Origin: a virus
Taxonomy: Duplodnaviria; Heunggongvirae; Uroviricota; Caudoviricetes
Direction: 5' to 3' (one strand)
Virus record (IMG/VR): IMGVR_UViG_2718218453_000005
Length of the DNA stretch: 48,452 bases
Shown here: piece by piece, positions 38,191 through 39,261 of the stretch
Position numbering within the stretch: the stretch's first letter is position 1
How the letters are laid out: each line of letters starts with the position of its first letter
Program-made: the position numbers and the translations under genes
Notes under the pieces: model-generated
What the model was told of the DNA's origin: nothing
Databases searched by the model: none
What the model saw: only the letters and a program-made list of their open reading frames with translations

Positions 38191-39261
38191 TTACCCCCTG
38201 AAGCCCGGCGGAATTTCGGTATCCGGTTCAGAAATATGATTCACACAACGCTGGTTGTTCGTGCCGTTTACCGGGAGCAACCAGGGGTTTTCAAAATTCC
38301 GGTCCGGTCCAAAAAACGTCGTCGCTCGCTGAACAAATTCCGTTCCCGTTTTCCCGGTAGCCGCCAAGTATCTTGCGTAACGCCTCACGCCATCCAGCAT
38401 GGCCTCTGGTGGCACCCCCTCGCGTAATCTGGCCTTCCAGGCACTGAAAGCGGATTTCTTCGGGTTTGCCCCGGCACGCAACGGGTACTCCCGCCAGATC
38501 TGTTCGAACACATCCGGATAATCCACTCGTCCCACAGGCTGCCCGGTGTTTTCCGGGACTACCCGATCGGCTTCCCGCTGAATGGCGGAATCGGCTTCGG
38601 GCTGCTGCAGTTGGTGTGATTGCTCCAGCCTTGCGGTCATCACCTGCTGCACAGCGCCCGAATCGGCTTTCAGCGCATACGCTGAATCGGCTTCCGGTGT
38701 CGTGCCTGCTGGCTGACCAAGATTGACGGTCTGAACATCCCCTGCCTGGTTCGTGGCGTTTTTTACGCCATGAACCATAGTATTTTGATCTTCTTGATCT
38801 GTATCTTTATCTGTATCTTTATCTGTCGTGACTCGTCGTGACATGTGCGTGACATTTCGTGACGCGTCGTGACAATCGCCATTTTGTTCCCGCTTTCTTT
38901 CCCTCTCACGCTGCGCCCTCTTGCGCTCTGCCGGAGATTTTGCGGTTTGCGAAATATTGCCGTTGTCCTCTTTAAGCACCTGGCGTTTTTCCCATCCAGT
39001 GATTAAATCACCATCAAGTACCCGCCCCTGCATCGTCTGCAAAATTGAATCAATTACCTCTTCTGTCACGTCGAGCGCACTTGCCAAATCTTCTGTCGTG
39101 ACATCAATGTGACCTCGCGTGACATTTCGTGACGCGCTCACCAGGAGGTGGATATACACTGCCATCACTGTTGCAATTGGCTGCCCTGACACCCTGGCAA
39201 TTGTTCGCCACTTAGGGTCATTTGGCATGTCATGCCATAATCTGAGCCAGGCGTTAGCCAT
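38191..39261 (-). CDS. YdaU-like putative replication initiation protein
   Basis: trimmed to ATG (MANAWLRLWHDMPNDPKW...) with GAGGTGA SD; contains internal iteron arrays; follows ydaS/ydaT as in Rac. Confidence 0.7.
   Translation of the reverse strand: MANAWLRLWHDMPNDPKWRTIARVSGQPIATVMAVYIHLLVSASRNVTRGHIDVTTEDLASALDVTEEVIDSILQTMQGRVLDGDLITGWEKRQVLKEDNGNISQTAKSPAERKRAQRERERKREQNGDCHDASRNVTHMSRRVTTDKDTDKDTDQEDQNTMVHGVKNATNQAGDVQTVNLGQPAGTTPEADSAYALKADSGAVQQVMTARLEQSHQLQQPEADSAIQREADRVVPENTGQPVGRVDYPDVFEQIWREYPLRAGANPKKSAFSAWKARLREGVPPEAMLDGVRRYARYLAATGKTGTEFVQRATTFFGPDRNFENPWLLPVNGTNNQRCVNHISEPDTEIPPGFRG
38827..38873. repeat. iteron-like array: five CGTGAC repeats at 10-11 bp spacing
   Basis: copies at about 38827, 38837, 38848, 38858, 38868; preceded by tandem ATCTGTATCTTT x2. 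Confidence 0.65.
39097..39133. repeat. second iteron-like array: four (C/T)GTGAC repeats at 10-11 bp spacing
   Basis: copies at about 39097, 39108, 39118, 39128; one inverted copy GTCACG near 39065. Confidence 0.6.

Follow-up and report, generated by a model that had tools for sequence, protein, structure and literature searches.

The stretch of DNA analysed here, the virus record IMGVR_UViG_2718218453_000005 of IMG/VR (Caudoviricetes; 48,452 nucleotides, referred to as a whole as the window), carries on its minus strand a replication initiator gene (38191..39267) containing two arrays of a short direct repeat, which we examined as parts of a candidate replication origin. The gene starts with GTG and encodes a protein of 358 amino acids, which was assigned to phrog_3729, 'replication initiation protein', with an E-value of 1e-255, and which PGAP names 'phage replisome organizer'. 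The protein has three parts: a winged-helix domain at the N-terminus, a linker, and a C-terminal half with a DnaT-like tail.

The promoter-distal array, array B (38827..38873, minus strand), lies in the DNA of the inter-domain linker, where GTCACG is repeated directly on the coding strand in five exact copies. Read on the plus strand, the complementary CGTGAC starts at 38827, 38837, 38848, 38858 and 38868, with a spacing of 10, 11, 10 and 10 bp, and the array encodes residues 132-147. The promoter-proximal array, array A (39097..39133, minus strand), comprises four direct copies on the coding strand, three of them exact (CGTGAC starts at 39097, 39118 and 39128) and one a variant with a single mismatch, GTCACA, read as TGTGAC at 39108-39113 on the plus strand; the spacing is 11, 10 and 10 on the plus strand, or 10/10/11 bp on the coding strand. 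Array A encodes residues 45-57, which in the winged-helix domain make up the end of helix 31-47 together with the loop after it. The initial annotation had reported five copies of CGTGAC at 10-11 bp spacing in the first place and four in the second: all five of the former are exact, while the latter group holds the mismatched copy. It had placed the arrays about 230 bp apart within the coding sequence, and the measured distance on the gene strand is 223 bp from end to start and 229 bp from start to start. A lone inverted hexamer, which reads CGTGAC on the coding strand, lies between the two arrays (39065..39070, plus strand). The peptides encoded by the hexamer arrays are CHDASRNVTHMSRRVTT and ASRNVTRGHIDVTT.

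This clustering is non-random and far beyond chance. Nine copies in the same orientation lie inside the open reading frame 38191-39267. On both strands of the window CGTGAC occurs 27 times against 16.6 expected, with 9 occurrences within the initiator gene, and the densest 50-bp stretch holds five copies against a maximum of two in 300 first-order Markov simulations of the window. CGTGAC is furthermore the sole hexamer of the window that clusters at four or more copies per 50 bp.

The selection acting on the repeats was evaluated in relatives of the gene. Diverse relatives came from a scan of bacterial genome contigs, the viral-contig matches listed being 99%-identical copies that were unusable for covariation. 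The set comprises fifty-two loci, each from a different bacterial species, whose products are related to the N-terminal domain with 41-98% amino acid identity, and Pseudomonas and Aeromonas phage records were added to them. The hosts, which belong to the Gamma- and Betaproteobacteria, include Escherichia, Serratia, Rahnella, Pantoea, Pseudomonas, Aeromonas, Bordetella, Acidovorax, Chromobacterium and Variovorax. Statistics on the layout and on the AT-rich tract described below were taken from 43 loci of different species and phages. In these relatives the proximal array lies at +116 to +165 from the start codon, typically with 2-4 copies and with up to 6, and the distal array lies at about +350 to +475, typically with 2-5 copies (range 1-6), the AT-rich tract always following directly. 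The spacing within arrays is 10 bp in 124 cases and 11 bp in 30 cases, and the median gap between the arrays is 229 bp. The inverted hexamer is found at an equivalent offset (+179 to +197) in many relatives of the GTCACG class.

The hexamer could conceivably have no function as DNA. According to such an explanation, the copies would stem from a peptide that is repeated or of low complexity (SRNVT motifs), or would be debris of replication slippage tolerated in the linker; the peptide ASRNVT is indeed present at both arrays, and linkers tolerate low complexity. However, in 27 genes the GTCACG copies are distributed over the three reading frames as 52/26/19 in array A and 30/28/33 in array B, and in the GTAACG-class genes the only frame avoided is the one that creates a TAA stop. 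Because the copies occupy all three frames, the hexamer is not a peptide repeat. Codon entropy, taken at amino acid columns conserved across 26 diverged genes, is 0 bits within the hexamers versus 1.5-2.4 bits at residues with 4- to 6-fold degenerate codons elsewhere in the same domain. In array A, the codons V49 GTC, T50 ACG, G52 GGT, H53 CAC and V56 GTC are each found in 25/25 genes; in array B, H133 CAC (23/23), S136 TCA (24/24) and V139 GTC (23/23) are likewise frozen, and the V67 codon of the inverted copy is GTG in 22/22. Synonymous positions in the hexamers are thus invariant across 25 species while the neighbouring codons are saturated. Moreover, array A lies within a folded domain and not within a linker.

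The core of the hexamer differs between lineages (GTCACG, GTAACG and CGAACG, with ACTACG in two truncated relatives), all forms having the pattern NNN-ACG, yet within one gene it is identical in both arrays, so that the core changes in the two arrays together while the protein fold is kept. The flanks of the hexamers are weakly conserved. These results show that the repeats are under DNA-level selection and that one sequence-specific reader acts on both arrays. Together, the reading frames, the frozen synonymous sites, the conserved layout and the concerted core change therefore exclude a protein-level or slippage explanation, and it is exceedingly improbable that the repeats lack a DNA function. 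The repeat class is independent of the host genus, Pseudomonas having both GTCACG and CGAACG classes.

In a subclade of Erwinia, Pantoea and Enterobacter (loci L108, L104 and L107; +120 to +500), the hexamers are denser, with 5-bp offsets, and partly palindromic (ACGTCACGTGAC); GTCACG and GTAACG are mixed and the winged-helix loop has an insertion. Clean specificity classes were rejected on the ground of this mixture. GTCACG and GTAACG may be one degenerate GTMACG site, with CGAACG alone clearly distinct, and the arrays may be able to expand within the loop-coding DNA.

Array B is directly followed on its promoter-distal side by an AT-rich, strand-asymmetric tract (38778..38826, minus strand), which reads ACAGATAAAGATACAGATAAAGATACAGATCAAGAAGATCAAAATACT on the coding strand, encodes TDKDTDKDTDQEDQNT and is a candidate DNA unwinding element. 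Its GC content is 0.28-0.33. A 12-bp tandem, TCTT(G/T)ATCTGT, occupies positions 38792-38826 within the tract in about three copies; the initial annotation had recognized a tandem beside the first array and had counted two copies. It had also ascribed the acidic peptide DKDTDKDTDQ to the hexamers, and this proved wrong: that peptide is encoded by the 12-bp tandem and the AT-rich tract. Two GATC sites lie in the tract (38786-38789 and 38795-38798), in a context, GATCTGTATCTTT, which we take to resemble the 13-mers of oriC. Dam methylation at these sites, or SeqA, may possibly influence firing.

The tract is a property of the family. Whatever the repeat class, an AT- and purine-rich AGATAAAGATA tract lies directly after array B on the promoter-distal side, and every class carries a (C/T)AGATAAAGATAAAGA-like sequence after the distal array. 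The 40 bp following array B are 67% AT versus 45% for the whole gene (Wilcoxon p 2e-13), with 74% purine on the coding strand, and AGATA[AC] occurs there at 11.0 versus 0.44 per kb, an enrichment of 25-fold. Since 136 of 151 AGATAA copies are in the D-K reading frame, a claim of DNA-level selection on this tract was rejected.

On the side away from the repeats the tract is flanked by a palindrome with 13-bp arms, TGGTTCGTGGCGT and ACGCCATGAACCA, and a spacer of 5 nucleotides (38747..38777). As single-stranded DNA it folds with -12.3 kcal/mol (z -5.5), and in the phage PhiR5_2 a paired T>C and A>G change keeps the stem. The palindrome was rejected as a family-wide feature, the best hairpin across the 43 loci being no better than that of control segments (p 0.24); to judge from these loci it is specific to the clade of the window.

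The initiator itself is the best candidate for the reader of the repeats, being the sole protein common to 25/25 loci of the GTCACG class within +/-1.5 kb. The coding region of its N-terminal domain (residues 1-131; 38875..39267, minus strand) is predicted to specify a winged helix-turn-helix, the presumed origin-binding domain: the AlphaFold2 model of these 131 residues (pLDDT 80.5) contains one winged-helix domain only, with a fold resembling the N-terminal winged helix of DnaD. The whole protein matched no Pfam family at the gathering score and none at E <= 0.01. When the N-terminal part was compared with Pfam at E <= 1, PF09681 and HTH_Crp_2 alone appeared, both below threshold. The alignment with PF09681 (Phage_rep_org_N) pairs residues 7-125 with profile positions 1-119 of 121, with an E-value of 0.009 and 16.5 bits, below the cut-off of 23.3, and the TIGR01714 score is 15.4 versus a cut-off of 49.8. 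By homology, then, the product of the gene is a replication initiator, and its N-terminal domain is a winged helix.

Another factor might bind the hexamers instead, such as a host protein, Cro, the cII/YdaT-like protein or the DUF977 protein, for a purpose other than initiation, such as the control of transcription, recognition in packaging or association with the nucleoid. Two clusters of short phased repeats are likewise found at packaging sites, P1 pac for example. Furthermore, the palindrome at 38747-38777 resembles a terminator of the antisense strand, since on the plus strand it forms a terminator-like hairpin followed by a T-rich run. Against this, no flanking protein is common to all GTCACG-class loci, the next commonest cluster after the initiator being present in 14/25; the repeat class does not track the host taxon; and neither a CGTGAC in the cI-cro control region nor a further cluster in the 48-kb window was found. 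The location in the initiator gene beside an AT-rich tract fits origins, whereas pac sites sit in or near terminase genes. We regard a different reader as very unlikely. The promoter and terminator scan gave counts equal to the shuffled expectation, and the promoter-like match inside array B is composed of the repeats themselves.

The C-terminal tail of the initiator (residues 334-358; 38194..38268, minus strand), which ends with VNHISEPDTEIPPGFRG, is DnaT-like. It matches positions 155-179 of the DnaT profile NF002770 with an E-value of 5e-4, and the DnaT chains 6aep, 2ru8 and 9zbt of the PDB with E-values of 0.0016-0.0064, the match being to the extreme C-terminus of DnaT. The same tail ends the YdaU protein of Escherichia coli K-12 (locus L137:3120-3977), which is otherwise unrelated. 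The tail presumably links the initiator to the helicase-loading machinery of the host, and its distribution suggests a portable peptide that plugs different phage initiators into the host PriA/PriB/DnaT or DnaB-DnaC machinery.

Across phages, the N-terminal domain and its repeats are joined to different helicase solutions. A primase-helicase (Toprim-DnaB fusion) accompanies the domain in Pseudomonas phages and a DnaC/IstB-like loader does so in the Aeromonas phage pAEv1818. The window and the isolated phages Evi and Tritos have neither gene; they have the DnaT-like tail instead, and in all three the gene after the initiator is DUF977/Ren-like, with no adjoining helicase or loader gene. Evi and Tritos retain every copy of the repeats, whose loss from functional homologues the initial annotation had named as the observation to look for against an origin. 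Conversely, the PhiR5_2 initiator has only the C-terminal half in common (81% nucleotide identity), and its different N-terminal half goes with no CGTGAC. Its linker (locus L003:3060-3125) contains (GAACAG)n-like repeats, CAAGAACAGGAACAGGAACAAGAACAGGAAAGG, encoding QEQEQEQEQE, in the place of the CGTGAC arrays and the AGATAA tract; these may be that module's own origin repeats.

The N-terminal domain was also matched in two circular Pseudomonas aeruginosa records of 50.9 kb deposited as plasmids, CP137943.1 and CP124671.1. In the one examined, CP137943.1 (locus L140), lambdoid phage genes are present and the typing line of the plasmid database gives no replicon type. The episome module consists of an S24 repressor, cII, the N-terminal initiator domain and then a DnaB-like helicase, and it seems to be this module that replicates the 50.9-kb episomes.

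We consider it likely, from the arrangement of these elements, that a Rac-like lambdoid prophage has its vegetative replication origin in the segment at about 38747-39133, inside the gene of its own initiator. The lambda-like candidate origin put forward in the initial annotation gains support from the reading frames, the frozen sites, the layout in more than 40 relatives, the concerted core change and the winged-helix initiator. The predicted anatomy is that of oriLambda or of SPP1 oriL, with initiator sites and an unwinding element in the initiator's own gene. No DnaA box was found in or near the segment, the count in the window being that expected by chance, which is neutral for an origin.

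We infer a course of events that covers the identity of the repeat binder, the unwinding of the AT-rich tract, looping between the arrays, the way in which the helicase is recruited and the activity of the origin as such. The initiator of 358 residues would be produced by transcription from the early rightward-type promoter (cro, cII-like and replication operon, minus strand). Its N-terminal winged-helix protomers would bind GTCACG head-to-tail, one per helical turn and on one face of the DNA, filling array B, the core set of predicted initiator-binding sites (five sites in the linker-coding DNA), and array A (four sites in the DNA that codes for the domain, about 229 bp upstream). The nucleoprotein complex so formed, which is probably wrapped, or looped from one array to the other, would destabilise the adjacent AT-rich, purine-asymmetric AGATAAAGATA tract, and the C-terminal half with its DnaT-like tail would recruit the host helicase-loading machinery.

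The role of array A is the point at which this scheme may need to be refined. The repeats could be initiator sites with array A being mainly regulatory, through an autoregulatory block of transcription or a handcuffing type of copy control with array B or with sister copies, so that the origin proper would be array B and the AT-rich tract alone. Array A is about 229 bp from the AT-rich tract and within the region that codes for the domain, and some distant relatives lack it. In Shiga toxin (Stx) phages, additional iterons distal to the AT-rich tract remain necessary in spite of their weak binding (PMC7466680), and for SPP1 it is proposed that gp38 stalls replication forks at the second site, oriR (PMC3485210). 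However, array A is conserved as strongly as array B, with its core changing in step, which one cooperative complex fits equally well, and no promoter adjoins it. A mainly regulatory array A is unlikely in our estimation, and it would refine the proposed origin rather than replace it.

Several observations weigh against the origin as we propose it. We claim no helical phasing between the arrays, since the Rayleigh R of their phase, 0.45 at a period of 10.4 bp, is equalled or exceeded at 9.6-10.0 bp and inflated by shared ancestry. The conservation of AGATAA could be partly protein-level because the copies are mostly in the single D-K frame. That array A is inherited together with the N-terminal domain is in part trivial, since the array sits inside the coding sequence of that domain. 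Some distant relatives have array B-like repeats and the AT-rich tract but no array A, which therefore cannot be essential to the mechanism of the family. Finally, the predicted recognition helix (residues 69-79, EEVIDSILQTM) is acidic, hydrophobic and variable within one repeat class.

The GTCACG and CGAACG classes are told apart best by residues 47-58, for which array A codes, together with a few positions of the basic helix 112-122. Array A might be self-referential, the DNA that encodes the most lineage-variable segment of the winged helix (residues 47-58) being at the same time a row of the initiator's own predicted sites; we hold this to be quite doubtful. If it were true that the 47-58 loop contributes to reading the 5' half of NNN-ACG, a change in the origin would automatically alter the specificity determinant of the protein. 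Such an arrangement would provide a built-in co-diversification of origin and initiator, by which co-resident prophages would escape cross-talk or exclusion.

An origin inside an initiator gene is a textbook kind of element, and the comparison with known systems defines what is particular to this one. In oriLambda, iterons and an AT-rich tract lie in the middle of gene O (PMC7466680, PMC6022878). The window resembles the origins of lambda and the Stx phages in having initiator-site repeats and an AT-rich tract within the initiator's own gene, with the repeats promoter-proximal and the tract promoter-distal. The lambda origin and the candidate origin of the window are each at the boundary of the N-terminal DNA-binding and C-terminal recruitment parts, the DNA also encodes a flexible linker, and the N-terminal part and the repeats form one exchangeable module combined with various C-terminal or helicase modules. 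In contrast, the window initiator has no sequence homology to O and no match to Phage_rep_O. Its cores are asymmetric direct hexamers of 6 bp every 10-11 bp, whereas the lambda iterons are 18-19 bp long, dyad-symmetric and bound by dimers. Unlike lambda, the window has a second array about 229 bp upstream inside the region coding for the DNA-binding domain, and it has the DnaT-like tail instead of a P-like or DnaC-like partner gene immediately downstream.

SPP1 oriL consists of direct repeats together with an unwinding element rich in AT, located in gene 38 and bound by gp38 (PMC6316719). As in this G38P/gp38 system, the window has repeats and an AT-rich element in the organizer's own gene and two separate repeat regions, to which binding is presumed. 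The PGAP name, the weak alignment with PF09681 and TIGR01714 over the full domain and the DnaD-like N-terminal winged helix also bring the initiator close to the SPP1-type Phage_rep_org_N proteins. However, its scores are below the family cut-offs (16.5 versus 23.3 bits; 15.4 versus 49.8) and the hosts are Proteobacteria; the two repeat regions are about 230 bp apart in one gene, while oriL and oriR of SPP1 are about 13 kb apart; and the window prophage has no loader or helicase of the gp39/gp40 type.

The initial annotation had called the gene ydaU-like. This holds for the gene position only, since by homology there is no DUF1376 match and hhalign of the N-terminal-domain profile against K-12 YdaU gave a probability of 1%; in BLASTP the initiator resembles YdaU over the KDTDKD linker and its last 19 residues alone. 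The K-12 Rac prophage (ydaS-ydaT-ydaU-ydaV, oriJ) resembles the window in prophage type and gene position (kilR, sieB, recE, repressor, cro, YdaT-like, initiator, DUF977), and YdaU shares the ...PD..IPPGFRG tail and has TGTTCAA-type repeats ahead of a AATAAAGATACAGATAAAGATC tract. The two N-terminal domains are not related, the repeats of ydaU are different, and K-12 has the DnaC-like YdaV where the window has none. In K-12 ydaU (locus L137:3472-3640), four TGTTCAA/TGTTGAA-type repeats come first, and after them AATAAAGATACAGATAAAGATC and two C7 runs. The layout, repeats and then the AGATAAAGATA tract, is the same as in the window. That this tract is common to an otherwise unrelated module hints at a common DNA unwinding element, and the ydaU segment is a plausible position of the Rac origin oriJ.

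Two other systems use short repeats. In the ori and crr of satellite phage P4, the alpha protein binds short octamer repeats in two separated clusters, one initiator serving both. The window is similar in having short direct repeats (6-8 bp cores) in two separated clusters, which one initiator would bind. However, alpha is a primase-helicase with another binding domain, and the P4 clusters are kilobases apart and outside any coding sequence for the DNA-binding domain. Iteron plasmids (RepA, pi, TrfA) have iterons of 17-22 bp at a spacing of about 22 bp outside the rep gene and a WH1-WH2 Rep protein; in the window, the spacing is 10-11 bp, the sites are within the gene, and the initiator has a single winged-helix domain and no Pfam match to a Rep family.

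Downstream from the promoter, the gene order is repressor, P22-Cro-like, cII/YdaT-like, initiator and DUF977/Ren-like. The LexA-family repressor gene lies on the plus strand (39963-40736), the P22-Cro-like gene is at 39755-39970, the cII/YdaT-like gene at 39333-39758 and, downstream of the initiator, the DUF977/Ren-like gene at 37728-38150. An identical copy of the initiator in E. coli EC07 belongs to a Rac-type prophage, beside sieB, kilR, ydaE, ydaF and recE. Directly downstream of the replication module of the window, a low-GC open reading frame of 1210 amino acids (33696-37328, minus strand) is annotated in RefSeq as a YobI-family P-loop NTPase; beyond it, the identical EC07 locus carries genes for a Hok/Gef toxin and for a protein of the TehB family. 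This region resembles a cargo or defence island that was inserted behind the replication genes.

The initiator gene was found at >=80% coverage in 1646/5426 complete E. coli genomes, about a third, as well as in isolated coliphages, Pseudomonas phages and Aeromonas phages; in IMG/VR, at least 582 relatives are among the 599 stretches listed. The annotated records that we examined list no origin feature, and in the searchable literature we found no description of the motif, of ydaU iterons or of a sequence-level map or structure of oriJ. What appears to be new is the combination of 6-bp cores at one turn each, two arrays in one gene, a DnaT-like tail, no homology to lambda O and a sub-threshold similarity to replisome organizers.

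The analysis pins the candidate origin to about 400 bp, which would provide a cis-element for prophage induction, marker-frequency studies, phage engineering and new E. coli or Pseudomonas vectors. The AGATAAAGATA tract in the YdaU module points to where oriJ of the K-12 Rac prophage may lie. The compact architecture, with one site per turn and two arrays, offers a comparison for the lambda O-some. An origin at this place would explain the synonymous-site constraint in this stretch of the protein, and the NNN-ACG classes on one protein scaffold would form a natural series for the co-evolution of initiator and origin.

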